64,000 bases of DNA, from NCBI GenBank assembly GCA_054600435.1, contig BAAIJX010000001.1, positions 1,054,001 through 1,118,000 of the forward strand, in the 5' to 3' direction. This document shows positions 695 to 22,040 of this stretch, piece by piece; the first letter of the stretch is position 1, and every line of letters starts with the position of its first letter. The position numbers and the translations under genes are program-made. The notes beneath the pieces are model-generated. The model saw only the letters and a program-made list of their open reading frames with translations, was not told where the DNA came from and ran no database searches. Source of the stretch: Neophaeotheca triangularis (taxonomy: Eukaryota).

Positions 695-1827
695 ATTGCC
701 TCTCTCTCTAGTAGCTCGTCCTCGAGCTAGCACTCATAAATATAGTTATATAGGACCCTAGTATAGCACGTATGTTAGTATCCTCGTTAAAAACCTTAGT
801 AGTGTCTTTACTAAGGAAAAGAGTGATACTACATACTACCGTCATACTATTAGGTCCCTAGAGTGAATTCACCCCAAACCTGAGTTCGCTATAGCGAGGT
901 GCATTATTGTTATGATAAGCGGTATTAATGGCTACGTGGCGGTGATCTAGTAGGGTAGTAATTACTAGTAGAGCCTTAGCGTAATTATGCTATAATTATG
1001 CGGAGGTGACCTACTAGCCGCTTCTCTTTCGAAGACTTCCTCCTTTTAACTACAACAACAATAACAGCCTCTACTCCGTCGTAGTCCCTTCGGTATACTA
1101 GTCTACCTTTTAATAAGGTAACCTTCTTTATTAGTAAGTGAACTTTAGTTCTTTATGTATACGCTACTATTAGTCCGTATGTAGTTCTTATTGTTCTTTA
1201 ATAATGAAACTAACCTCACCTAGTTTCCTATTATTACCTGCTTCTAGTGACCTTTCGAAAACCTTACCTAGCGCGGTTTAATAAAAAGGCGCTCCTCGTA
1301 CCTCTAACACCTTCTTGCCTTCTTTATTAACTACTTTTTTCGTGATCTCGCTATCGCCCTTTTTTCCGCTAGCTTTATTCACTACCTTCATTACTCTACT
1401 ACTATTCTATCATACCTCCGCGTGTTAGTAAGCGTCTAAAGGCGCTAGTCGACTATAGCGTTAGCGCTATAGCCATTAATAGTAAGGGTACCTTTACTAT
1501 AGATAGAGCGATTATCGCTAAGGGAGTCTTTATGACTAAGGGCTACTATTAGATCAACACTAGTAGTTTTATAGAGGAGGAGTTAAAGGATCTAGTTAAT
1601 GAGTCGAAGTCTATCAAGAAGGATTTGAAGTTAGAGGGTGTTAGTACGAAGCGTACTGTAGCTATTAAGGGCGTAGGCTCGAAACGTAAGTATGCTATAG
1701 GTAATAATAGTAAAGAGAGTGAGTCTAATAAGGGTATACTAGCGTTCTGTCGCTTCGCCGACATCGATAAGGGTAAGAAGCTTACTCCTATTAATGTTAA
1801 TCGCCCTCGTTATTCGCGCTACATTAA

Positions 1828-1979
1828 TGTTATGGTAAGAGGGAGGGAGCCCTTTTGGTTTAGTAGGGAAGGTAGTAGCCTAGCCCTAGGCTAGCTACTT
1901 CTACCTCTATAGCTAGATAGCTTCATTCATCTATCTTGTTTACATCTCACACTTTGTACTACACCTATTAGTCGTAGTA
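1828..1979 (+). repeat. 5' LTR of element B
   Basis: Colinear with 14588-14739; followed by AT-TAGTAGCTA, a possible RIP-altered TGGTAGCTG primer-binding site. Confidence 0.95.
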
Positions 1980-2045
1980 ATTAGTAGCTAAGAATAGCAA
2001 GGATCCCTTGATTACTAATACTAGACAGCTAGCTCTAAACCTATA

Positions 2046-2235
2046 AGTCGTCTCTACCTACTAAAGTCGTCTTAACTAGCTAAAGTCGTCTCGACACCCT
2101 AGAGTCATCTTAGCACCTCAAGGTCGTCTCGACACTTTATAGTCGTCTCGACACCCTAAAGTCGTCTCGACACTGTGATGTCATCTCGACACGCTAGAGT
2201 CGTCTCGAACCTCGCTAGGCGTCTCGGTACCGTAC
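2046..2235 (+). repeat. Tandem array of ~10 x 19-bp units (core AGTCGTCTCGAC) in the 5' leader of element B
   Basis: Cores start at 2046, 2065, 2084, 2103, 2122, 2141, 2160, 2179, 2198, 2217. Confidence 0.9.
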
Positions 2236-2690
2236 CGCTATCCTAACACTACCTACCTATCTCGGCCTACTATAGGCGTTACTACAACCCCTCGGTCGTT
2301 AGCGAGCCCCTAGTTCGTCTCGAACTACTCCGAGCGCTACGATACTTATTAGCCGCTTCGAGCTAACCTTACGCTACTTAACGACATCCTACTACTCTAA
2401 GTCGATTAGTGATACACATTAGGTTCGAAGGTACACTACCTTATAAGAATATAAGACTAATCCTAGACCTAGTATCGATTATAAGTGTCTCTATACATGC
2501 CCGAGCCACTATAGCGCTTAGTACCCACGCCTCTAATCCCTTTCGCCCCTCTACCTAAGCTACTTAGCATTAGAACCCCATATTGCCCTCCCCTTTCCAC
2601 TACTCTAATTTAGTAGTTTACGGAAGCTATAAAGGCCTTCCGACTCCGCTTTCCGCCCATAAGTTTAGTTAAGCGCTTACCGATTGAACT

Positions 2691-5600
2691 ATGTTTATTA
2701 CACTAGACCCCTTACCCGAACTACCTACGTAAATCGTACTCGTAGCTTACTAACTTCACGCTTTCTACTCCTACCCCGGCCGCTCGAAAGCCGTCTATAG
2801 TAGGAATCCTTAACTCTAGGACACCCTTCTCCTAATTACCTAGAGCTACCCTATTAACTAGGACCTTAGAGAGTTTAGCTTCCCTACTAGTTAGTTAGTC
2901 GAAAAATCACTTATTACTCTAATCGTGTACGACTTACTTACCGCTTTTGAGGGGATATACTACTACCTAGCCCTCTACTTAGACCTACCCGAGCTAACCC
3001 TTATAGGTGTACTAGCTACTATTATTACTACTAAAAGCTGCCCTATATGTCCCCTAAGGAAAGTTATAGTCGCCCCTATGAGACAGGTTATAACTACTCC
3101 CTAAAAACCCCCTACTATAGAAGAACCCTAGCTTCCTATAGCTATTAATCCGGTCTACGACTCCCTACTAGCGACTACTCCCCAACAAATCCTCGCTATA
3201 CTAGACTCCTACCCTTCCCTAGCCGTTAATCCTATCTAGTACCCCTTACCGCTTACGCTACCTTTAGAGATCTAAGTACTACTAAGTAAAGACATTAGCT
3301 CTACTATTAGCGACGACAGCCCCCTAGAACCGTCATAGTACCCCGGTTTCGAGGACCTACTAAAGACTAAGCGGTCGACGCCCTCCGAGCCTTTATAGCC
3401 CTTACTAACTATAAAGGCCTCCTCGGAGTCACCTCTATGTACTTATAATGAATTTAGAAACGCCCCCTTCCCCTTCCTCGCGCCTAATTAGACTTTTCCC
3501 TACTAACCTGTATTAATAGTCGTGATAACGTCTAGATAGGAAGGTACCCTCTATAACGGCCCTATCGACTACGACGAGGACGACTATTAGTTAGCTCTAG
3601 CTAGCCTAAGTGCTAGGACCTAGGGGAAATAACCCTAATAGGATCTAGAGCCGGATTATATTACACGAGACAGCATTCGGGAGATGCTCTATGAGGCGGT
3701 AGAAGAGACGAGAAGTGCTTTAGTCGCCGAGTTCTAACATACTATAGTATAGGTTCGCTCTAAAGCTAGTACTGATCTCGATAAGCGCTTCTAAGCGTTT
3801 CGCTATAAACTCGGACAACCTAGACTACTCCTAAACACTACCTCGTACTAGCCGTTACCCTCTATCGAATCCTAATAGGAGATTCGTTATCATGCCCCTC
3901 CTCATGACGAGCGTCTTAGGAGAGCTAGTTTATTCGCCTACCCTAGCGAGGAACAACTAAATGTACGGCCTCTATCCCTCTAGCGACAAATCCCCCGTGA
4001 CTCCCTACCTAGATACCGTACCCGGGATGAGCCTAATAACCCTAGCTCTTTAAGCTTAGACTCTAACTACTACTTATACTCGCGAAGGGAGCGTTATAGG
4101 GATCGTCGCTCTCGTAGGACCTCCCGTAGTAGACGCGACTCCTACTACGACTATAACTAGAACGCGTCATGCTTACGTTCTCGCTAGGGCAACTTTAGAC
4201 CTAACGATATAGGCTATTTCGATCTATATCTCCTAGTCATAACTAAGGCACTAGTAGGTAACTCTATTACTTATTAGAACAAACAATTCTTCTACTCCGT
4301 TCACTATTTCCTCTAATCTGCCTAGGATTACTCTACTATTAACTCCGCTACTACTACGAGGTAGTAGTTACTGAAATGCTTATGTAGAGGCGCGAGCTAG
4401 TAGTTTATTAGCTAACTCACTGATGCCGATAGGGCCTACCTTCGCAGTAGCTATAGTATCGAACATTAGGAGATAGCCCTACGCGACAAATTCCGTGTCT
4501 TAGTCATAACTACGCTCACTAATCTTAACAAGGAGCTCTTTTCGCGCGATAACATGTAGTAGGGGAGAGCTCCCTCTAAGTTCGTACTAAGCTACTACTA
4601 ATAGGCTTTAGAAGTATAGATCGATAGCCTAACTACTAGGATAGCTTAGTGTTAGCTTCGAATCGAGCCCTAGCTCTAATGAGATATCGATAAGCCTAAC
4701 TATACTACTATATAGGAGGAATTAATACGTGAGATAGAGGATTACATAGACACTTGGGCTAAGTTATACCCCCTCTACCCTACTAACCTACTAAGTAAGC
4801 ATTATTATCCTAACCCCCTAATCGATACTAATAGTATAGGTAACCGCTACTTTAGAGGCGATAATCGCTATACGCCTAACCCTAACCTCTAGGCTCGACT
4901 TCCTAGAAACGGAGTAGACCGTTACCTGCTAAGATAACAACCCTAGAGTGCCCCCCCTACCTAAAGAGAGTTCGGTTTATAAGACAATGTAAGCTATCTA
5001 TAGAATTAAGGTCGCTAACGCCTACCTTACTAGGACAGATAACCCCCCTAATCAGCCCCCCTACGTACTTAGCTAAGGCTAGCTAATAATCACTTAGCCG
5101 ATATCGACGAGGATAACGAAGTCGATGACTATAATCATGTAGTAGAGCCCGACGAGTTAGAGGAGTACGAGGACTACGAGGAAGACGCCCTAGAAGTTAA
5201 CTTCGCTGACATCGTAGCCTATAACGATAACGACGACCAATTTCTCACTTCGTCTAATCTAGTCTAAGCCTATCTAAACGAGGCTTTAGCCTCTAGCCTT
5301 ATTATAGCTCCTATACTAGTAGTACCGCGACTAGCGCTATCCGTTTAGCCCCGCCCGGCTAAGCTTAGGTATTTGGAATGTAATGATTCTTTCGGTTCAC
5401 GAAACTCTCTCTATAGGCACTTATAGCTCGTATATAGCGCGGTAGAGGACTCTAAGTCTACCTAACTAGCTAAGGTTCCTAAAATGACTTCCTTACCTAA
5501 GTATAAAGAGGAACTCCTAGTCGTTAAATCATTAGCTCTCGGGACTAACTATTAAGGATATGCTTTCCGTAATTTTTACTATCTCCGTCTCGCTATTCGA

Positions 5601-8600
5601 CTAGCTAAGTTAGGCGTCGACTACTCCGTCTACCTCGATATAGGAGCTGTTATATTAATAATTGACAAGCGATTTTTGGCTACTTACTTACCTAGTATAT
5701 AGCTCTACAAACTAAAAGTGCCTTTTTAGGTATATAGAGTTAGTTCCTAACTACATACTTGCTCCGAGTACGCCGAACTTACCTTCTAGACTCTTACCGA
5801 TACCCTAGTAGGAAGGGGCCTCTATGAGATGACCTATAAGGTATACATTATTAGCGACTTAAAACCTTTAATGCTCATTTCTATAGACATTATTACCCCC
5901 TAGGCAATAAAGATTGACATCCCCTATAAGCTCGTGACTATTAGAGCCTATAGAAACGCTAAAGTACCCCTACTCATCAAGCCTAGAGACCGCTTAAAGC
6001 TCGGGTTGTCACTAAAAGCCACACACCCTATCACTATTCTACTACGCTTATTAGCGAAAGTTCCCTTAGCCTAGATAGACCTCCCTATAGATAGGGATTT
6101 CGACTTCACACCTAGCCTAAACCTTCCTCCTAGGTTAAAAGGATATAACTATACTACTAACGCTAATTTGGCCTTTATACTAATTAGGAACGACTTACTC
6201 TAACCCGTAACGCTACTAGCTAGGAAGCCCCTCGGCCGTTTAACTAAGTAGACCGACGAGGAGGGCTATCACATTAGCCCTAACAACTATTACCTAGTAG
6301 GGCTCCTACCTAAAACCGTTTTTAATGGCCTACCTATAGCTGACTAGCTAGTCTTACCTAATGGAATCATAGTGTTCGGCGATGACATATAGGTAGTAGC
6401 CTTTAACATGTTGTTAGCCGACTTCCCCGACTTGTTTGTCGATAAAGGCTAAACTGTAGACATTCCTAAGCATCGTCACATACCTATCTATCTTAAAGAT
6501 AGCTAGGAAAAGGAGAAGCTATCTATAAAGGGGTATCCGCTCTACGCCTTAGACCGCGTTATGCTTAACGAGGCCTATAATAGACTATACCGCTAAGGCA
6601 AAATGGAGTGGTCTTATAAGTATATAGCTTTTAGCTCCCTAGTTTTTGTCATGTAGAAAATAGTCTATTAAGATAGAGCCCTAGTAAGAAAGGGTCGTAT
6701 AGTCGTTAATATCCGCAACCTTAACCTCGTTATAGTCAAAGATAGCTACCTACTCCCTCTCTAAGAAGACCTTCTTTAGGCAACATAAGGTACTAAACTT
6801 ATCTTAGTCATAGACGTAGTCGCCTTTTTCTTCTAGTGGCTTACTACCGTAAAAGACCGGTATAAGCTCGCTGTCAACTCCTATTATAGGCAGGAAATTT
6901 TTAAGGTCGCTATTATGGGTTTCAAAAATTCAGTAGCCTATGTCTAGAGGGAGCTTAACAATATCCTATACTACCTCTACCCATTTTGCCGCGCTTATAT
7001 AGACGATATTGTCATCTTTTCCGCTAACCTTAACGAGTACCTCGACTACCTCTAATAAGTGTTCACTGTCCTATAAGGATACTACGTCAGTATTAGCCTA
7101 GTCATAACCTTCTTAGGTTTCCCCTCTACCGCCTTACTCGGCTAGTAAGTTAGTAGACTAGGCCTAGCGACCTATGAGGACAAAATTAAGGCTATACTAG
7201 ACCTCTAGTTCCCTCGTTCCTTAAAGGACTTAGAGAAATATCTTAGGCTTACCGGTTAGTTACGACAAGCCGTCCCTTATTATGCCTAGATTACCTAGCT
7301 ACTTAAGGGTAGCCCTATAAAGGGTAACGCTAGAAAGCGTTACTTAGCTACTATAAAGGTCACTCTCGATATAGACGAGCTCTATGCCTAGGCATATACC
7401 GCTTTCGAGGCCTTATAGGCTATCTTTAAGGACTCCCCTTTCCTTTACTACCTTAATCTAAAGAGACGGCTTTATGCCGACGTCGACGCCTCTAAAGAAT
7501 TTGGGTTTAGAGCAGTCATCTATATAGTGGCTAGAGACCCCGACCTAGTTATGTCCGGAACGAAAGCGCTATACTTTCCTAGGAAAGACATCTAGCCTAT
7601 CGCCTTTTTAAGTAAGGGACTTACCCTTATAGAGAGTCACTATTAGCCTATAGAGTTAGAAATAGCCGGCTTGGTTTAGCTTCTACGAAAGGCACACTAC
7701 ATCATATAGTCGTCACTACTTCCCACTCTTATTTTCACTAATCATATAGCTATAACGGGCATCGCTACCTAATGTAGCCTCACTACTACTACTTATACTA
7801 ATAAGCTTAACCTCCGGCTAGTTAGAGCTAGCTAATATGTCTCCTAATTTAACCTAGACGTCTACTATAGGCCTAGCTATATCCACTTAGTCCCTAATGC
7901 TTTAAGCCGCCTACTCGGTAAACTCGCTACTCTAGTAGAGGCTCTTACTAACACGCTCGACCCTATAGCCTATAAGGAAGTACACTACGCCTCTATTAGC
8001 GCTACTGATTACGATAGCGCGGATGCTTAACACTTCCCAGATTTCGCTGATTTATAGGAGCCGTTAGCCTTCTACACGGCCTTAGTAGAAATAGCCGACG
8101 ACCTTAAGTAGGAGATTCGCGCTAGCTATCGTTTAGACCCGTACTAGGCCCCTCGCCTCCTCTAACTCTAGGCATAGGAGGAGCGCCGCTATCGCGATAC
8201 TACTAAGGAGTCGACGCCCTTATAAGAAGCTATGACCGCTCTATAGACCGTCCCTACTTAGCCTATAGAAGTCGTTAGCGAGACTAAGGATACTTTAGAG
8301 GGCGAGCCTAAATCATCCCTATTAGGCCTCCGATTCTTCTTACGCGACGACCTTATCTACTATAGAGATGACGCCGATAGCTAGGAACGCCTATATATTC
8401 CCTACTTAATCTTTAAGGAGGTTTTCGCGATAGCGCACGATAATCACCACCATACTAGTTTCTTTAGAGCCTATACTCGCGTTCAGGCTAGCTTTTATAT
8501 CCGCTACTTACCCTAGGAGCTACGACGCTATATCTCCTACTACCCGGACTACGTATTACACTAGACATGATAACATAGGCCCCTAGGCGAGCTCTAACCT

Positions 8601-9737
8601 ATAGAGGTTCGCCTAATCCCATATCACACTTAAACCGCCGACTAGGTACATGCCCTACCTCCTACCCTAACGGGCTTCGATTCCTTACTTATAGTTACTA
8701 ACCGCTTCTCTAAAAAGATCCTGTTAATTAAAGGGCGCGCTGATTAGTTAGCACCGGAATAGGTAGTAGCTTAGCTAGAGGCACTCCGAATAGCTAATTA
8801 GAATATTCCCACTATTCTTATTAGCGATAGAGATCCCCTATAGCTCTCTACTTTCTAGAAGGAAGTTTTTAGGTAGCTTCGTACTAGGTTCCTCGCTTCT
8901 ACTACCTACTATCTATAGACCGATGGTTAGTCTAAGCGAACTAACTAAACCGTAGAGATCGCTATCCGTTTCTTTGTCAACTCGAACCTAGACACGCCTT
9001 AGGATATAGCTCTACCCTATATCTAGTCGACGCTTAATAATGCCTAGAACGCCTCTACAAATGAGATTCTAAACATAGTTATCTAAGGCTTTAGAACAAA
9101 TTTAGACGCACTTAACACTCTTATCGAGCTCCTAGCTACAGATTACGTTACGCTTAGACAAGTCGTAAGGGACTAAGCGTCGGATGTACTAGCGATAGTA
9201 GCTGCCGTAATAAAAGACAGGTATGACTATACCCATAAGCCTATCTACTTCAAACCTAGCTAAAAGGTCTTACTTAAGCTCTAGTATAGTTACACTATCC
9301 CTAGTTTCATTCCGAAAAAGTTAGCTATATAGAGAACAGGCCCTTTCAAGATACTATAGGTAGTAGACCGACTAGCCTACAAGCTCGATCTCCCGCTATA
9401 CTAGAAAATCTACCTAGTAGTTTCCATTACTTAGTTAGAACTAGCTCTCTAGGCCCCGGATCCTTATAACTATAAGCCTACCGAATTAGGCCCCGTCTCT
9501 ATTAACGATAATAGGATTTCAGTCTGTGAAATCAAGCGTTTACTAGCTAGGAGAGTCTGTACGTAGTAGGGCAAGCCGATAAAACAGTATCTAGTGAAGT
9601 GGAAAGACTAGGGCCTAGCACATAATCTCTAGTATAACGCTAACGACTTAGCCGACGCTTAGGAGTTAATAGTAGAATACGACTATATCTATCCTAGTAT
9701 AGACGGCAACCTTAGGGTAAGGGGTAGACGCTATTAA
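2691..9737 (+). pseudogene. gag-pol: Single-frame gag-pol of element B (gag, C2H2 finger, protease, RT, RNase H, integrase, chromodomain); ends approximate
   Basis: All in one frame: DIGYFD (4206), (Y>C)LECNDSFGSRNSLYRHL*LV(Y>H) (5370-5435), YLD(I>T)GA (5631), KGRIVVNIRNLN (~6690), AYIDDIVIF (6993-7019), YADVDASKEFGF (~7473), AHDNHHH (~8433), YYL*TDG*SKRTN*TVE (~8907), YLVKWKD*G (9588). Stops are TAA/TAG at expected Q/W positions. Confidence 0.92.
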
Positions 9738-10232
9738 CTACCCCTACCTCGACTCGATTCCCTCTAGCTACCTTAGCTAGTACCACGACACCTAATAGTA
9801 GTCATCCTACCCCCGACACGCTACCCATTACCCTCCGCCTCCGAAGGAGAGCCTAAAGAGCTCCTATAGTAAGCTAACCCCTACCGCCTATATCCCGCTT
9901 TCTAACGCTCTAGAGCGGAAGTCTACTAGTAAGTTAGGAGGGTAGCTACTTATGCCTTTAGGGGTGCCTAAGGCATCTCGGCGGCATTACCATTCTTATT
10001 AGCGCTATCGATAACGCCCGCCGTCGCCACGACGACATATGACGCGGCACCTTTCACTTCTTAGCATGACTTCTTACTTTCCGCTTTTAGTAATAATAAT
10101 AATAACGCGACTCCGCACCTTTCTAAAAAAGTTCTCCCTTATCCTATGACTATACCTAGCCATAACACCCTTTTCACATAACACCTTCGCTCTATAATAA
10201 CACTTCTTCGTCTACCTACTTTATACTCTTAT

Positions 10233-13200
10233 ATGTCAGATAACTCTAACTTGTTACTACCTAGCGATAACATCTCTAAAACCGAGTACACCTCTACCTA
10301 CCCACTACTAGTAGCTCTTACGCTAAACGAGCTCATACTCTTACTATGCTTCATACTAAGATGCTTTCTTCGCATGTAAGAGACTAACTCAACCTAAAAC
10401 ACACGCCCTCGTCTCCTATAGGGAGAGAATAGTATAATAGCTAATACATCTTAACCCGCTACGCCTTTAGTAGTCTACTATTCTATCGAAAAACCAGACC
10501 TGCTACTAGCTTAGTGGTCTCCCTACTAGCGTGACACTTTCGCATGTAACGGATTGTAGATCCTAGATACCTACTCTCTCCCCTCTCTATCGCTACCATT
10601 CTAGCCCTACGAGGCCTAGTTAATTGAGAACATAGTAGTAGTTCTCCTTTACGCTAACCTTAGCGTCTTATTCACCTAAGACACTTTCACTCTTAGCCTC
10701 TTAGTAGTAGCTAATCTTCTCGACCTAAAGCATGAAGACCTTCGCCCTTAGACGTTAGCTAAGCTTCTCTTTACCTACTTCCGTTTTATGCCGCTCGACT
10801 CACTCTTTAGTGGTACACTCTTCCTATACCTTTTAGAGCTTAACGACGACTCCGCGTTACTACTCTAGCTTAAAGCTATCTACGGCCCCTAGGGTATAGA
10901 ATCCGTAGCGCTCATATTAGCTTATATAGGCCCGTCGCTTTTCGCCGGCCTTTCTTAGTTAAACGAAGAATACTAGCCGTTACTTCGCGCTTCGTTTCCT
11001 ATAGCCCTAAAAGACCTAAAGGACTATACCCTTACCTAGATTAAGTATACGAAGCGCGTAAAGGTTATCGTTACGCTAGGTTTTACCTACCTCGTTAGCT
11101 ATATGACAGCCGAGCAACTCCTTCTCGACGGAGCCCTACTCCTATAGGAATTAGCGATATAGGTAGCTACCTATTATAGGAGAGGAGACCGACTCCTCGC
11201 TACTCTCGAAGCTTAATTAACTATCGACAATACTTTCTACGACACTAAGCGCTAGAGCGCTATCTATAAAGGCGTCGAGCGCGAAAACCCTAAGGAGTCC
11301 CTAGAGTACTACGATAAGTAGGCTATCGCTAAGCTCGCCCTTAAATAAGCTAAACTATATATATGCCTAGTAGACTATATCTTAAACGCCTAGCCCGGGG
11401 TAATCGCCTACTTCGCGTACGAAGACGATAACTAAGTCATCGCTATACCTACTAATCCACTCTACTTTTCGATCTTCTACGCCTTCTCTATAGACGCGGT
11501 AGCCCCTATAGAAGAGCTCGCTAGGATTACTAAGTGCGAGCGCTAGGTAACTAATCGTCTAGGTCAACTCTACTCTTTCGAGGTCTTAAAGACGTTAGCA
11601 CTAGACGACAGATTCACTATAGCACTTTCCTACTTCGTCGAAGTCCTTTTAGAAGGTCGTTACTCTACGCTCTAACAAGCCTACTAGAAGACTAAGAACG
11701 AGCCCTATAGCTATACCGAGCTCGTCCTCTACGCTATCGGCCTTATAGTTCGTGACGCCTAGTCACTATCCCCTTTCGTTAACTCTACTATAGGCGGCGG
11801 AATTCCTAACCCCTTCACTACTATACGCCGCTATGACGGTATCGATAAGGTAGAGGACTAGTTTCTAATGTACGACAAAACCCGCCCTAAGAGCGCCGAA
11901 ATTTCCCGGGAGCTAGGCTCTAAGCTTAACCTAGCTAAGGCTTAGGGCTACTACTAGTACTATATAATACACTCCTATTTCTCTCGCGAAAACCTCCTAC
12001 CTAGGAATGCTATCCTGAGCGATTGTGACGTATACGAGCTCATACTACTCTATTATATAGATAAAGTGCTCTCGAAGAGGTTCCTATACGATAACTAGCC
12101 AGCAAATTTTAACTAGGACGTGTTACCACTCCCTATTCGCCGCCCCTATAGCCTACTAGTAGTTATCTATGTTAAAAGCGACAACTACTACTACTATGTT
12201 TATGTCTAGGGCGTATACACCCTTAGTAGTAGAAGACACTACTATAACACCTTAGAGGCAGCCCACGATAACGATCGCTATATCGACTACGACACTAATA
12301 ACCTCGTCTTTTACCCCTAGATACGCCCTAACACAGTAGGTGTATTAAAGTCTTATCACTCCTAGAAAGGAAAGCCTGTCTTTAGATACGACCTAGACAT
12401 AGAGGTTAATTGGACTAAAATCGAGTGGCCTAAGTACGTAGATATAGACCGCGTATAGGACGACTTACATATATACCTCGACATATAAGCCTCTATAAGC
12501 CTAACACACTAAGCCGTCCCCTAAGAGGTCGTCGAGATCTAGCTTTAAGGCCGTAATACCCTCGCTAGGCCCGTCCCCTACATTCCTAGCTAAGAGGCAA
12601 TTAGGGAGCTTACTAACGTCGCGGAGTTCTACGACACTAACTCTTTCCCAATCTAGCATTATGTAGTCAACCTACCTCTACCCTAAGACTAGGACGATGT
12701 TTTACTAGTAAGCGCCGCCCTCCCTCTAGCGGTATCAACTAGTAAAACTAGTAATACTTTCCGTTTGCCCCTATCCCGCTCGACTCCTACTAGGCCCTTA
12801 ATAGGGACTACCCCCGCCCTAACTACTACGACGTCATATCGCTTACCTATAGGACTAGCCCTATTCCCGTCCTAAAGCACGACGGCTATAAAGCACTACG
12901 GCCCTACGGCACTCCCTAATCCTTTCGTTAAAGACAAACACCACGCCTTAGTAGCCGTAAAGGCTCCCTATAAGGGCGCTTTTGCGTAAAGCGCTACTAG
13001 CGCTAATGCCCTAATGATGTTAGGAGCCCGACAGGACCGCCCTCTACTACTCGATAGCGAGATGACCGCCGATTCTTAGTACGGCTATGATGACGCGGTA
13101 TAGAGATACTACACTGCCCTTAAGGTATTAGAGCGCGTCTACATTAAATCGGAGCGCCTCTAGGAGGAAGCTAGGGAGTAGCTAAGACTAATAACTAACA

Positions 13201-13676
13201 TTAAGCGCGACACTCTCGCTATAGTAGCTACTAACATTAAGCTAGCGAAGGATAGCGCTATACGCCACGGCGATCTTAACATTATCGACCTACTACCTTA
13301 GGTTACTATAGCATGGAACAACTAGGCTTTTAAGTAACTAGACGCTCCCCCTCCCTCTATAGGAAACGCCTTAGGTATAGACGTTACTTAGCTATTCTAG
13401 GTCCTAGTTCCTCCTAAGGACATTCCCGAGCCCGACTTCTAGTCCTTACTAATAGTAGGTAGGATAGCGCTACGAGCTACTACCGGCCTATAAGCTACCG
13501 TCGAACTAACCCCTATAGGCCCTACTCGTAACACTCGATCTAGAGTACTTACTAGTAGCGCTAAGCTAGCGACTATCCCTCCCTATAGCTTAAACAAGAC
13601 GCCCTACCCTAATAAGTATCTACTACCTACGAATGCTCCCTAGTTAGTAAGCAAACGTACCCGTACCGTTCTATAG
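10233..13676 (+). pseudogene. Extra ORF (~1150 codons) of unknown function downstream of pol in element B, RIP-degenerate
   Basis: From ATG 10233 one frame reads as protein-like for ~3.4 kb (e.g. KGVERENPKESLEYYDK, ELVLYAIGLIVRDA, VNWTKIEWPKYVDIDRV) with only TAA/TAG stops and no apparent frameshift. No domain recognised; 3' end uncertain. Confidence 0.65.
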
Positions 13677-13699
13677 CTCTAGGTTGTAAACGGTACTCT

Positions 13700-14072
13700 A
13701 GGTGAAATCCCTTATAACTACTAGGCACCTTCGCTCTACTAACTTAGGGCGTAATCCCTTTTAACTATTAGGTACCTTCGCTCTACTAACTTAGGGCGAA
13801 ATCCCTTTAACTATATAGTACCTCCGCTCTACTAAAGCGAGGCTTATACCTCTAAGCTTATCCTAGTATAGCTTTATACTCTCTACGAGCTCTATATAGA
13901 CTAGCGTTTTAACAGCTCTTCCTAGTATTAGCTTTGTCCCTCTACGAGCTTTTTCTATAGACTAGCGATTTGACAGCTCTACCTAGTATAGCTTTATCCC
14001 TCTACGAGCTTTTCTATAGACTAGTACTTTAATAGCTCATTCTAGTATGGCTATCGCCCTCTACGAGCTTTT
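13700..14072 (+). repeat. Two tandem repeats in the 3' region of element B (~47 bp x ~3; ~59-60 bp x ~3.5)
   Basis: ACCTTCGCTCTACTAACTTAGGGCG repeated within 13700-13835; CTAGTATAGCTTTATCCCTCTACGAGCTTTTCTATAGACTAG repeated within 13862-14072. Confidence 0.85.
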
Positions 14073-14266
14073 ACGCGAGCGACATATGACCGGTATAGTA
14101 CATAGTATATTTATCTAAAGCATAAAGGAACTTCCCTATACTACTAAAACTCTCTAGCCTTATTTTAACCCTACCCTGACTTCCTACCACGACTAGCTAT
14201 TACGCTACTACCTCGCGTAGCGCTAATAGCTCCTCTAACACTATAAAGCAAATATAACCCCTCGCC

Positions 14267-14545
14267 GTCGAGACGATTTCTCTATATCGAGATAGCTCTT
14301 CGCTACCGATATGGCCCTATAATGTCTAGATAACCTTTCCCTATTAAGACGACCTCTAGTAGTCGAGACGACTCCTAATAGTTAGGACGACTCCCGATTG
14401 TCGACACGACTCCTAGTAGTTAAGATGACTCCTAGTTGTCGACATGACTCTAAGTAGTCGTCACGACTCCTTGTTGTCGAGACGACTCTAGGTTGTCGAG
14501 ACGACTCCTACTTGTCGAGATGACTTCCCCTTAGGGAAGACGACC
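14267..14545 (+). repeat. Tandem array of ~11-15 x 19-bp units (core GTCGAGACGACT) before the PPT of element B; reverse complement of the 5' array
   Basis: Cores at 14343, 14362, 14381, 14400, 14419, 14438, 14457, 14476, 14495, 14514, with weaker copies from 14267. Confidence 0.9.
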
Positions 14546-14587
14546 TTAGCCTATAAGGACATGTACGCCTCTTAGGGGGGGGGAGTT

Positions 14588-14739
14588 TGTTATAGTAGGA
14601 GGGAGAGAGCCCTTTTAGTTTAGTAGGGAAGGTAGTAGCCCGGCCCTAGGCTAGCTACTTCTACCTCTATAGCTAGATAGCTTCATTTATCTATCTTGTT
14701 TACATCTCACACTTTATGCCACATCTATTAGTCGTAGTA
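14588..14739 (+). repeat. 3' LTR of element B
   Basis: Preceded by the GGGGGGGGGAG polypurine tract, followed by TSD ATTAA. Confidence 0.95.
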
Positions 14740-15813
14740 ATTAAGGAGCTCTTAAGTAACGTTCTCGATAGGTCTATCGACTTTATCCTACTATATAAGA
14801 CAGTGCCTTCCGCGACCGGATCAGTATGTAATACCTACTCTAACGCGAAGTAATCGTGCCTCGAGGTAAGCCTACTATAGCTCTATCGTCATTACGAGTT
14901 TTCACTAACGTCTCTTTAGATCATTCCTAACCTCGCGAGCTAGCGTAGCTATCATGTCTAGATGAACTATACCACTATGCTCTATTATGCTAATCGCGCT
15001 AGTAGTAGCGCCGCTAGTTCGCTAATGTACCTTAAGGTCTTAGAAGTTAACGCTAAGGTCTCCTAGTACTTCTATAAGAATAACTACGCTATCATTCTAA
15101 TAGGGGGCCTTCATCGTTCCGGTCCTAATAACGATAAGATCTTAACTCTATACGATATAGCACACCTAATCACGGATTAAACTCGCGACTTCGCTACGAT
15201 CGTCACTAATGCTGTCGAGAGGCTTATCGCTATCTACTATATAGAAATGTCTATACTTATTAGCGAGATGTCTAGCTACTATCGCGCTACGCCTTCTTCT
15301 TCGCTAGTATACGATATGCCTAGTTTTAGTAAGTCGCCACCTTACGATAAGACCGTTAGTATGCTAGTACTAGTAGTAGCTCCTAAGGTACTAGTAGTAG
15401 AGACTAAGGGTCTAGTTCGGAAGAGTAGTAGGGACGATGCCGGTACGCTACTAGAGGTGTCTTCTAGTAGAAGTTCTTCTTCTTCGCTAGAGTTAGATAA
15501 TAAGGAGGATAAGGCTCTAAAGAAGCCTTCTAGTCTCTTAGGCTTCCTTAGGATTCGCTATAGGGACGACGCTACTCTATTAGTAGGAGAGAATGTAGAG
15601 AAGTCTATTAGTACCGAAGATTAGCTAGAGGCTAATATTGCTAAGGTTTCGAAGGAGTTAGACACTAGGGCTTGAGCGTTTATTAGATTATTTGCATACT
15701 CTCTATAAGCGCTATTGTCCTGTCGCTAGCCTATCTATAGTAGCTATTAATTAAGAAGCTTATGTACTACGTCCTTTTCCTATAGTTTTCTTCTTTTTTC
15801 CTAGCTATGTATT

Positions 15814-20937: not shown

Positions 20938-21160
20938 TATAAGACCGAGACTATAACTTAGTTAGGATCACGGCGTAGTAAGAGTAGGACGTAATAATGG
21001 TAATAATAGTAATAGTCCTTTAATATAGAAACTATTCGATAGTAGATAGGAGACTTCACTATTAGCTATCTTATATACTTTCGTAGTATATATACTTAGC
21101 ACTCCTAAGCTACTCCGTAGCTTAGGCCGCCGATGTCCCGCTAGCGCCGCGGTCGTGATA
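20938..21160 (-). repeat. 5' LTR of Gypsy element A
   Basis: Second 223-bp copy; minus-strand TATATAAG at 21070-21077; gag starts ~50 bp downstream. Confidence 0.95.
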
Positions 21161-21339
21161 TAGTCGAGAATTAGGGATTGTTCGTAGCGGTTACGAACAA
21201 TGTAGCGGGATCAGAAATTAGTCGAGTCGGTCGAGTTAGTCATAGCGGACGGAAGCTACTTTAATTAGTCGCAATTCATTCTATGTGTGTCTGTCTAGGT
21301 AGGTGTCTAAGATATAAGTACTAGGGGAGGTGTACCTAT

Positions 21340-22040
21340 AAGGCCCTATCGCATTATGAGGCTCCGTCGTATTATAAGGCCCCGTCGCGTTATAAAGGCC
21401 CCGTCGCATTATGAGGCCCCGTCGCATTATGAGGCCCCGTCGCATTATGAGGCCCCGTCGCATTATGAGGCCCCGTCGCATTATGAGGCCCCGTCGCATC
21501 TTACCCCGTCATATTATAAGGTCGCCGTCGTATTATAAGGCCCTATTACATCTTGCCCGGGCCCCGTCGCATTATGAGGCCCTATCGCATCTTGTCCTAT
21601 CGCATTATGAGGTCGCCGTCGTATTATAAGGCCCCGTCGTATCTTACCCTGTCGTATTATGAGGCCCCGTCGCATCTTGCCCCATCATATTATAAGGTCG
21701 CCGTCATATTATAAGGCCCTATTACATCTTGCCCGGGCCCTATCGTATTATGAGGCCCTATCGCATCTTGTCCCGTCGCATTATGAGGTTGCCGTCGCAT
21801 TATAAGGCCCCGTCGCATTGTGAGGCCCCGTCGCATTATGAGGCCCCGTCGCATTGTGAGGCCCCGTCGCATTATGAGGTCGCCGTCGTATTATAAGGCC
21901 CCGTCATATCTTATCCCGTCGTATCTCGAGATTGCCGTCGCATTATAAGGGCCCGTCGCATCTCGAGGCCCTGTCGTATTGCGAGGTAAGACCCTGTCGT
22001 ATTGTGAGGGCCCGTCGCATCTTGAGGTCGCTATCGCATT
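21340..22040. repeat. 18-bp minisatellite (GAGGCCCCGTCGCATTRT) with interspersed shorter variants, inside the TIR element
   Basis: Directly visible; it produces the spurious (MRRGLI)n and (HYEAPS)n ORFs. Confidence 0.95.

Follow-up and report, generated by a model that had tools for sequence, protein, structure and literature searches.

Inverse 19-bp tandem arrays inside both LTRs of a Ty3/Gypsy chromovirus from Neophaeotheca triangularis, with a possible role in pairing the ends of its RNA

A stretch of 64,000 nucleotides of Neophaeotheca triangularis DNA (GenBank assembly GCA_054600435.1, contig BAAIJX010000001.1, positions 1,054,001 to 1,118,000 of the forward strand; hereafter the window) contains a degraded retrotransposon, element B, with a short tandem array just inside each of its two long terminal repeats (LTRs). 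Both arrays have a period of 19 nt and a common 12-nt core (GTCGTCTCGACA), and they run in inverse orientation to each other. They are lineage-specific tandem repeats of a Ty3/Gypsy chromovirus, one situated in its 5′ leader and the other in its 3′ untranslated region. Because of their position inside the LTRs both arrays belong to the genomic transcript, where they stand as reverse complements. The best single mechanism that can be proposed for them is an amplified zipper for 5′-3′ cyclisation of this RNA, a tentative reading with an estimated probability of about 0.38. The mirrored arrays look like an oddity of one lineage, since distant relatives do not carry them.

Position, units and orientation of the arrays

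A preliminary description of the window, made from its letters alone, had reported mirror-image arrays of period 19 just inside both LTRs of element B, and this is borne out by Tandem Repeats Finder (TRF), by a count of 11-mers and by alignment of the two ends. TRF finds period 19 at 2040-2213 (9.1 copies, 62% matches) and at 14347-14525 (9.4 copies, 73% matches), together with higher-order periods of 38, 57 and 76, while a repeat search returns 8 in-register copies on the 5′ side and 9 on the 3′ side, with a spacing of 19. Read in register, the 5′ array consists of 9 units at 2047-2217 and a degenerate tenth at 2218-2240, and the 3′ array of 11 units (14335-14543, the outermost two degenerate). 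The 5′ array begins 68 nt past the 5′ LTR, just beyond the primer-binding site, and the 3′ array stops 42 nt short of the 3′ LTR, just ahead of the polypurine-tract module.

The 11-mer GTCGTCTCGAC, allowing at most one mismatch, occurs 17 times in the window as against 0.99 ± 0.92 expected, a number reached in none of 100 shuffles. Fourteen of these matches lie in the arrays: seven at 2047-2209, all on the + strand, and seven at 14267-14524, six of which are on the − strand and one of which is a palindromic variant scored on +. The remaining three are singletons outside the arrays. When the 600 nt inside the 5′ LTR are aligned to the reverse complement of the 600 nt inside the 3′ LTR, the score is 74 (z = 20.6), compared with 25 (z = 2.0) in direct orientation. 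Inverted pairs between the arrays connect 2123-2208 with 14439-14524 (86 nt, 73% complementary) and 2159-2208 with 14477-14526 (50 nt, 80% complementary). The homology between the two ends of B ceases at the array borders and thus gives no sign of an inverted partial element. A search of positions 1-22000 of the window against Rfam gave no match at E values up to 1.

The first 12 nt of the unit are identical between the two arrays, whereas the 7-nt spacers differ consistently between the arrays and are fairly uniform within each. The core is indeed a spaced palindrome, as first described, but the conserved block has to be redefined as the 12 nt of GTCGTCTCGACA. That it lacks CA and TG, the dinucleotides preferred by repeat-induced point mutation (RIP), is likewise true but carries no information, being an artefact of RIP itself: 67% of the 11-mers in B lack them, whereas outside the repeats of the window the figure is 17%.

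Predicted pairing of the RNA ends

Through the arrays the genomic transcript would close into a panhandle, and the minus-strand cDNA, which has the same complementarity, would later close likewise. The predicted panhandle consists of about ten 12-bp helices, in which GUCGUCUCGACA pairs with UGUCGAGACGAC, between internal loops of 7×7 nt; as the period is 19 in both arrays, all helices can form in register. The zipper would extend from about 50 nt beyond the primer-binding site to 30 nt before the polypurine tract, and would bring the primer-binding site, U5 and R beside the polypurine tract, U3 and R. Such a juxtaposition of the ends would favour both the first and the second strand transfer during reverse transcription, and might also assist dimerisation or packaging. 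Support for this proposal comes from the symmetric placement of the arrays, one near the primer-binding site and one near the polypurine tract, each accompanied by a lone unit on its inner side.

The complementarity is matched by the predicted thermodynamics. Cofolding of RNA segments 2030-2240 and 14330-14560, in their present mutated sequence, gives an energy of −177.2 kcal/mol with 138 of the 150 base pairs intermolecular, and a gain of −48.1 kcal/mol over the separate folds. The corresponding gain is −5.7 ± 2.7 for 40 shuffled partners, −15.2 for a partner in direct orientation, and −8.6 on average (minimum −18.5) for 23 other internal segments. For the first and last 200 internal nt of B, RNAduplex yields z = −7.3 relative to cross-element pairs, and the longest exact complement between the 5′ and 3′ ends measures 13 nt, where the cross-element background has a mean of 6.9 and a maximum of 9. 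The end pairing envisaged in the preliminary description is physically well supported against three types of control, and its geometry fits. We infer that the transcript would form the duplex in vivo; that the duplex aided replication or was favoured by selection is a hypothesis.

Contacts between the ends of the genomic RNA have precedents in two yeast elements. In Ty1 the complementary 5′ and 3′ motifs CYC5 and CYC3 cyclise the genomic RNA (PMC7969010), and a bipartite 5′-3′ primer site of Ty3 has been proposed to do the same (PMC11381356). The likeness to B lies in an end complementarity near the primer-binding site and polypurine tract that is proposed or shown to join the ends for reverse transcription. 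The yeast motifs, however, are single and short, and those of Ty3 are bridged by the primer tRNA, whereas B has two arrays of about 190 nt and some ten units each, with a putative function. It is the strong cofold, together with these precedents, that makes cyclisation the favoured explanation.

The same duplex suggests a different outcome, in which the panhandle is a self-made double-stranded RNA that is fed to RNA silencing, so that the arrays would put a brake on the element, be it as an accidental or as a host-favoured trigger. Both the long intramolecular duplex that is predicted and the very low copy number of the family are consistent with such a brake without being specific to it, but RIP alone accounts for the low copy number, and a brake of this kind is regarded as quite improbable.

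Comparison with related elements

The comparison of B with its relatives weighs against the cyclisation zipper, as do several features of the arrays themselves. Alignment of six close proteins led to 80 loci on metagenome contigs; the 52 loci of at least 6 kb were self-compared, which yielded 24 elements whose pol lies between two LTRs. Of these, three (L001, L002 and L021) are contigs whose identical ends were taken as LTRs, and many are near-duplicates, leaving perhaps ten independent families. The LTRs of these relatives are short like those of B (99-243 bp), but the relationship is distant, with the best of them, L005 and L006, showing 40% amino-acid identity in pol.

None of the 24 relatives with an LTR pair has mirrored arrays, and their inverse end alignments reach z values of at most 3.3, as opposed to 20.6 in B. 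The end pairing predicted for them by RNAduplex stays within background (z from −1.6 to +0.9), and so does the longest exact 5′/3′ complement, which measures 6-9 nt in the 17 relatives that remain after removal of the near-duplicates L043, L057, L060 and L061 and of the three contigs named above. Neither RNAduplex nor the search for exact complements found a short ancestral cyclisation motif in the relatives. With arrays and above-background end complementarity both missing from the relatives, the feature is not a conserved requirement. The array pattern is missing from all 80 related loci, where the core motif has only 14 isolated or paired matches in 756 kb.

Within B, each array folds stably on itself (−53.9 and −75.2 kcal/mol), which provides a competing structure. 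Complementarity has not been kept in the spacers, where 5 of the 7 consensus positions differ between the arrays. The 3′ array has a C-to-G transversion in the core centre of 3 of its 11 units, for which the 5′ array offers no compensating change; this is the opposite of what selection for pairing leads one to expect, and fits a spaced half-site. Thus co-variation upholding the complementarity, which the preliminary description had put forward as a check, was encountered neither among the relatives examined, which have no arrays, nor within B. The region is moreover prone to tandem repeats, since B has two further, unrelated repeats in its 3′ untranslated region and the relatives have assorted arrays. 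A duplex of about 190 bp could set off RNA silencing, which would be a cost. Finally, the family of B numbers about 2-3 copies at a likeness of at least 80% in sequencing run X1, and this is no sign of success.

The leader of L006 contains the words ATCGTCT and TCGACACC, one of each and 34 nt apart, which may be taken as a weak hint that the array unit grew from leader sequence. A pattern of two cores 8 nt apart had no match in viral_contigs and three matches in bacterial genome bins, taken as irrelevant; one bacterial match, L081, consists of 19 bp present in two copies, within GC-rich DNA that is apparently coding.

Some other features were observed in the relatives. The final 45 nt or so before the 3′ LTR form a conserved-looking module in L006 (12740-12796), L008, L013, L050, L053 and others, composed of a short GC-rich hairpin, a T-run and the polypurine tract; in L006 the hairpin GGCCATTAGGGCCAATGGC is followed by TTTTTT. 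The RIP-like relative L054 has adjacent 12-bp arrays in inverse orientation at 14079-14746, with 18 copies of TAGTTAATAAGG and then 27 of its complement, which make a foldback about 1.1 kb downstream of pol. In L003, six different 12/24-bp arrays surround pol.

Copies of element B in the same genome

Among the contigs of run X1, one sister copy of B skips 14282-14346, with a joint from 14281 to 14347, and then aligns over at least 175 nt, which is most of the 3′ array. The presence of the 3′ array in a sister copy implies that the arrays, at least the 3′ one, are older than the copy in the window, and they were probably carried through transposition. Absence of the arrays from sister copies had been named in the preliminary description as a refuting observation; the arrays are missing from the 24 more distant relatives, but the 3′ array is present in a sister copy of the same genome. 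The depth in run X1 over the two array bins (328 and 379) resembles that over the remainder of B (256-633), and since it is not raised, the arrays are not a dispersed satellite.

Rearranged or deleted forms are among the sister copies of B in this genome: in one contig the end of the 5′ LTR (1980) is followed by 7241 on the opposite strand, and others skip 3319-6894 or 6953-8614. Runs X2 and X3, which have the same organism label, gave no alignment at 80% likeness to B or to element A, the element that hosts B, although A is multi-copy in X1; this is not proof of absence, as the strains may have very different repeats or the contigs may have been lost to filtering.

Tandem repeats in untranslated regions

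Without any selected role, the arrays could be a by-product of replication, namely tandem repeats of untranslated regions that arise from template switching or slippage. A rare rearrangement would then have copied one array inversely to the other end, few cycles would have followed before RIP froze the element, and pairing would be a side effect, possibly a harmful one. This course of events is a close rival of the cyclisation zipper and only slightly less probable. It draws strength from the low copy number of 2-3 and from the tandem-repeat tendency of the 3′ untranslated region, where B itself has repeats of 47 and 59 bp. L001 (17 bp × 6.8), L010, L019 and L038 have arrays unrelated to those of B, in their untranslated regions or close by, while most relatives have none, and the mirrored arrays are missing in all 24. 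The higher-order periods of 38, 57 and 76 are typical of growth through block duplication. A by-product would also be expected to show what is seen in the units, that is, spacers that have drifted apart and a core transversion that is uncompensated.

Against a by-product stand the several coincidences that it needs: a mirrored and symmetric placement, an equal period and an identical 12-nt core. There is no evident mechanism for the inverse copy, as the end homology stops at the array borders. So strong a duplex is in addition unlikely to be neutral for translation, packaging and reverse transcription, yet the 3′ array is common to the sister copy.

Ty3/gypsy elements of the plant Tat/Ogre lineage are known for hypervariable tandem repeats in their 3′ untranslated region, which are thought to arise in replication (PMC7004042, citing Macas et al. 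2009). These repeats agree with B in being short arrays between the coding region and the 3′ LTR that vary in unit and length, and B has three of them; in the consulted part of that source, however, they are described on the 3′ side only, with no mirrored partner in the 5′ leader. B itself qualifies as a carrier of hypervariable repeats, since its 19-, 47- and 59-bp arrays lie in non-coding parts and differ among relatives.

Tandem repeats of untranslated regions and 5′-3′ cyclisation are each already known, and no report of mirrored tandem arrays inside both LTRs of an LTR element was found in a literature search of incomplete coverage. If the cyclisation zipper is real, B would be a natural retroelement whose end-to-end contact is built from amplified tandem repeats and not from one short motif. 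It would then link hypervariable untranslated-region repeats with genome cyclisation and suggest a route by which cyclisation elements originate de novo. The mirrored arrays would then also offer a handy modular design for measuring how far end pairing aids strand transfer. With one mutated family of 2-3 copies and no conservation, the present case is a curiosity and not yet a principle.

Possible protein-binding sites and the extra coding region

The arrays might also be multimeric sites, in DNA or RNA, at which a protein dimer recognises the spaced palindrome GTCG-N3-CGAC. Candidates would be transcription or chromatin factors of the host and, among the proteins of the element, Gag, integrase or the product of an extra open reading frame (ORF) of B; the sites could function as an internal enhancer or insulator, or in joining the cDNA ends. 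The pattern of variation feeds this idea: the 12-nt core with its palindromic half-sites is conserved, the half-sites are hit almost only by RIP-type transitions, and in the 3′ array the non-RIP changes fall in the central triplet (positions 6 and 7), with the spacers free to vary. As the LTRs measure just 152 bp, regulatory sites may need an internal location. The classic case is the gypsy element, whose leader contains an array of Su(Hw) sites. However, a palindromic site requires neither inverse orientation nor an equal period, and the central-triplet variants probably represent one or two events that were spread through block duplication. Outside the arrays the window shows no enrichment of the motif, with three singletons as compared with about one expected. 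No DNA-binding family was detected in the element besides integrase, and the extra ORF is without a recognisable fold. Binding sites, although counted with the by-product among the close rivals of the zipper, are an unlikely explanation of the arrays.

Leader repeats are also found in the Drosophila errantiviruses ZAM and Tirant, in which tandem repeats downstream of the 5′ LTR and primer-binding site have been discussed as regulatory or targeting sequences (PMC5408687). They share with B their place directly after the 5′ LTR and primer-binding site; they differ in being confined to the 5′ side, in their units of 100-300 bp and in the lack of an inverse 3′ copy.

The preliminary description had suggested that the binding protein could be encoded by the element itself, as the product of the extra ORF or as a C2H2 finger, in a module like VANC/VANDAL. 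In modules of this type an element-encoded protein binds the short repeats of its own element and counteracts silencing. A six-frame Pfam search of B found no C2H2 family, and the supposed finger is most likely the zinc-binding H2C2 domain of integrase (a weak match, E = 0.037), which is present in every such element.

The extra region, about 4 kb of coding-like sequence, follows integrase in the same low-stop frame and has 8 homologues (best E = 6.9e-28), which tblastn places at 11439-12485. They define a domain of about 230 aa that is common to fungal-type proteins of 417-1467 aa. Pfam recognises no family in the 8 homologues; Atlas gives a weak lead to DUF6590 (score 0.87). The AlphaFold model is confident at residues 42-193 only, and Foldseek returned no PDB match at an E value of 0.001 or better. 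L006 also has extra ORFs (273 and 844 aa), unrelated to those of B. The extra domain occurs in none of the 80 related loci, and neither do the arrays, so that the loci offer no informative contrast for co-occurrence.

No link between the arrays and an element-encoded DNA-binding protein was thus found in these searches, and the VANC/VANDAL-like module is unsupported. In a self-encoded module of mirrored arrays and extra ORF, the element would supply a dimeric protein that attaches to the GTCG-N3-CGAC sites at either end of its cDNA or provirus, and this protein would either synapse the ends in the manner of the subterminal repeats of DNA transposons, or shield the element from silencing. This is very improbable; if true, it would mean that a DNA-transposon-like recognition of the ends had been grafted onto an LTR retrotransposon.

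Anatomy and classification of element B

Element B is a Ty3/Gypsy chromovirus on the + strand that has been degraded by RIP and is dead for replication today (Table 1). Reverse transcriptase, RNase H, integrase and a probable chromodomain follow each other in this order in a single frame of the + strand (from 1830). All their Pfam scores are below the curated cut-offs because of RIP, which has left 270 stops in this frame. Along 98% of its length the pol region (6327-9779) shares 45% identity with P0001, a protein with the reverse transcriptase, RNase H, integrase and chromo families. In the H2C2 domain of integrase, cysteines have become tyrosine through RIP, whereas the H and C columns are invariant in the relatives. 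The RIP indices of B are extreme, with a TpA/ApT ratio of 2.3 and a (CpA+TpG)/(ApC+GpT) ratio of 0.34, as opposed to normal values of 0.71 and 1.23 in the gene-rich part of the window. The two LTRs differ at 11 of 152 positions, and every difference is a transition. In place of the TAGTAGC... of B, the primer-binding site of most relatives, 2-5 nt past the LTR, reads TGGTAGC; we take it to be that of initiator tRNA-Met. The final 900 nt of B consist mostly of tandem repeats, with the 47-bp and 59-bp repeats just upstream of the 19-bp array.

Table 1. Features of element B in window coordinates
Feature	Position	Strand	Remarks
Target-site duplication ATTAA, left copy	1823..1827	+	identical 5 nt at 14740-14744
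5′ LTR, 152 bp, starts TGTTAT	1828..1979	+	direct repeat with 14588-14739
Primer-binding site region TAGTAGCTAAGAATAGC, RIP-mutated TGGTAGC...	1982..1998	+	aligned by eye to TGGTAGCTGAGAAGC of L006
5′ array, 9 in-register 19-nt units and 1 degenerate, consensus GTCGTCTCGACACCCTAAA	2047..2240	+	5′ leader
Lone degenerate unit TTCGTCTCGAAC	2314..2325	+	inward of 5′ array
Gag-like region, frame of 1830	4194..4763	+	tblastn, 23% identity over 190 aa to first ORF of L006; weak
Reverse transcriptase	6696..7094	+	Pfam RVT_1, E = 2.6e-4, below cut-off
RNase H	7398..7778	+	Pfam RT_RNaseH_2, 1.1e-5; RT_RNaseH, 6.1e-5
Integrase H2C2 zinc-binding domain	8415..8537	+	Pfam Integrase_H2C2, E = 0.037, weak
Integrase C-terminal SH3 (Tf2-1 type)	9267..9407	+	Pfam SH3_Tf2-1, E = 1.6e-4
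Probable chromodomain	9528..9680	+	Pfam Chromo, E = 2.4e-4; 21.4 bits, cut-off 25.1; relatives carry PF00385
Extra region after integrase, same low-stop frame	9780..13700	+	frame with fewest stops; domain at about 11440-12490
Tandem repeat, 47 bp × 2.8 copies	13704..13835	+	3′ untranslated region, TRF
Tandem repeat, 59 bp × 3.6 copies	13861..14072	+	3′ untranslated region, TRF
Lone unit, GTCGAGACGAT on +	14267..14277	−	inward of 3′ array
3′ array, 11 in-register 19-nt units, minus-strand consensus GTCGTCTCGACAACTAGGA	14335..14545	−	end of 3′ untranslated region
Polypurine tract GGGGGGGGGAG	14575..14585	+	2 nt before 3′ LTR; relatives have purine runs in same position
3′ LTR, 152 bp	14588..14739	+	direct repeat with 1828-1979
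Target-site duplication ATTAA, right copy	14740..14744	+	matches left copy; empty-site contigs

The insertion site of B is known in its empty state from two contigs of run X1, which join 1822 to 14740 with 5 ambiguous letters; these contigs are other copies of the host element A without B.

Short subterminal motifs that are repeated near both ends in mirror orientation are a feature of DNA transposons, such as En/Spm with its TNPA motifs and the foldback elements. However, inverted repeats form the ends of those elements, which also encode a transposase, whereas B has direct LTRs, a 5-bp duplication, and reverse transcriptase, RNase H and integrase. Another possibility considered was that a separate foldback-type DNA transposon had the arrays as its terminal inverted repeats, or that they are two insertions of a repeat-bearing miniature element, unrelated in either case to the LTR element; according to the preliminary description, such a foldback element should have a target duplication of its own at about 2040 and 14550. 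The 8-mer CCTATAAG does border the 5′ array on its outer side (2040-2047) and recurs shortly beyond the outer end of the 3′ array (14550-14557), as an 8-bp target duplication might, and two 20-nt windows drawn at random from B have a 7-mer in common in only 3.2% of cases. But CCTATAAG is the spacer/core junction of the unit itself, a common word that occurs 8 times on the + strand of B, and the true target duplication is the ATTAA at the LTR ends, with its empty-site contigs. Gag and pol lie between the arrays, and the primer-binding site and polypurine tract lie outside them; as pol and the primer-binding-site flank both have L006 as their nearest relative, the sequences inside and outside the arrays are one lineage. 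The six-frame Pfam search found no transposase family in B, the array depth is not raised, the window contains no other such array, and the pattern is missing from the 80 related loci. In view of the ATTAA at the LTRs, the origin of CCTATAAG in the unit and the single lineage inside and outside, a separate foldback element is rejected and comes close to being refuted.

Sequence context of element B

Element A, the host of B, is itself a RIP-mutated Ty3/Gypsy element and occupies positions 472-21158 of the window on the − strand. Its LTRs (472-692 and 20938-21158) are 89% identical, and matches to reverse transcriptase, RNase H and integrase lie in one frame. The summed depth of A in run X1 is about 10 times that of B, which implies many copies, some of them with an empty B site. 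An 18-bp satellite, TATGAGGCCCCGTCGCAT, is found at 21337-21980 in about 32 copies with higher-order periods of 36, 91 and 176; it adjoins the LTR of element A, where the RIP-mutated block gives way to the GC-rich gene region.

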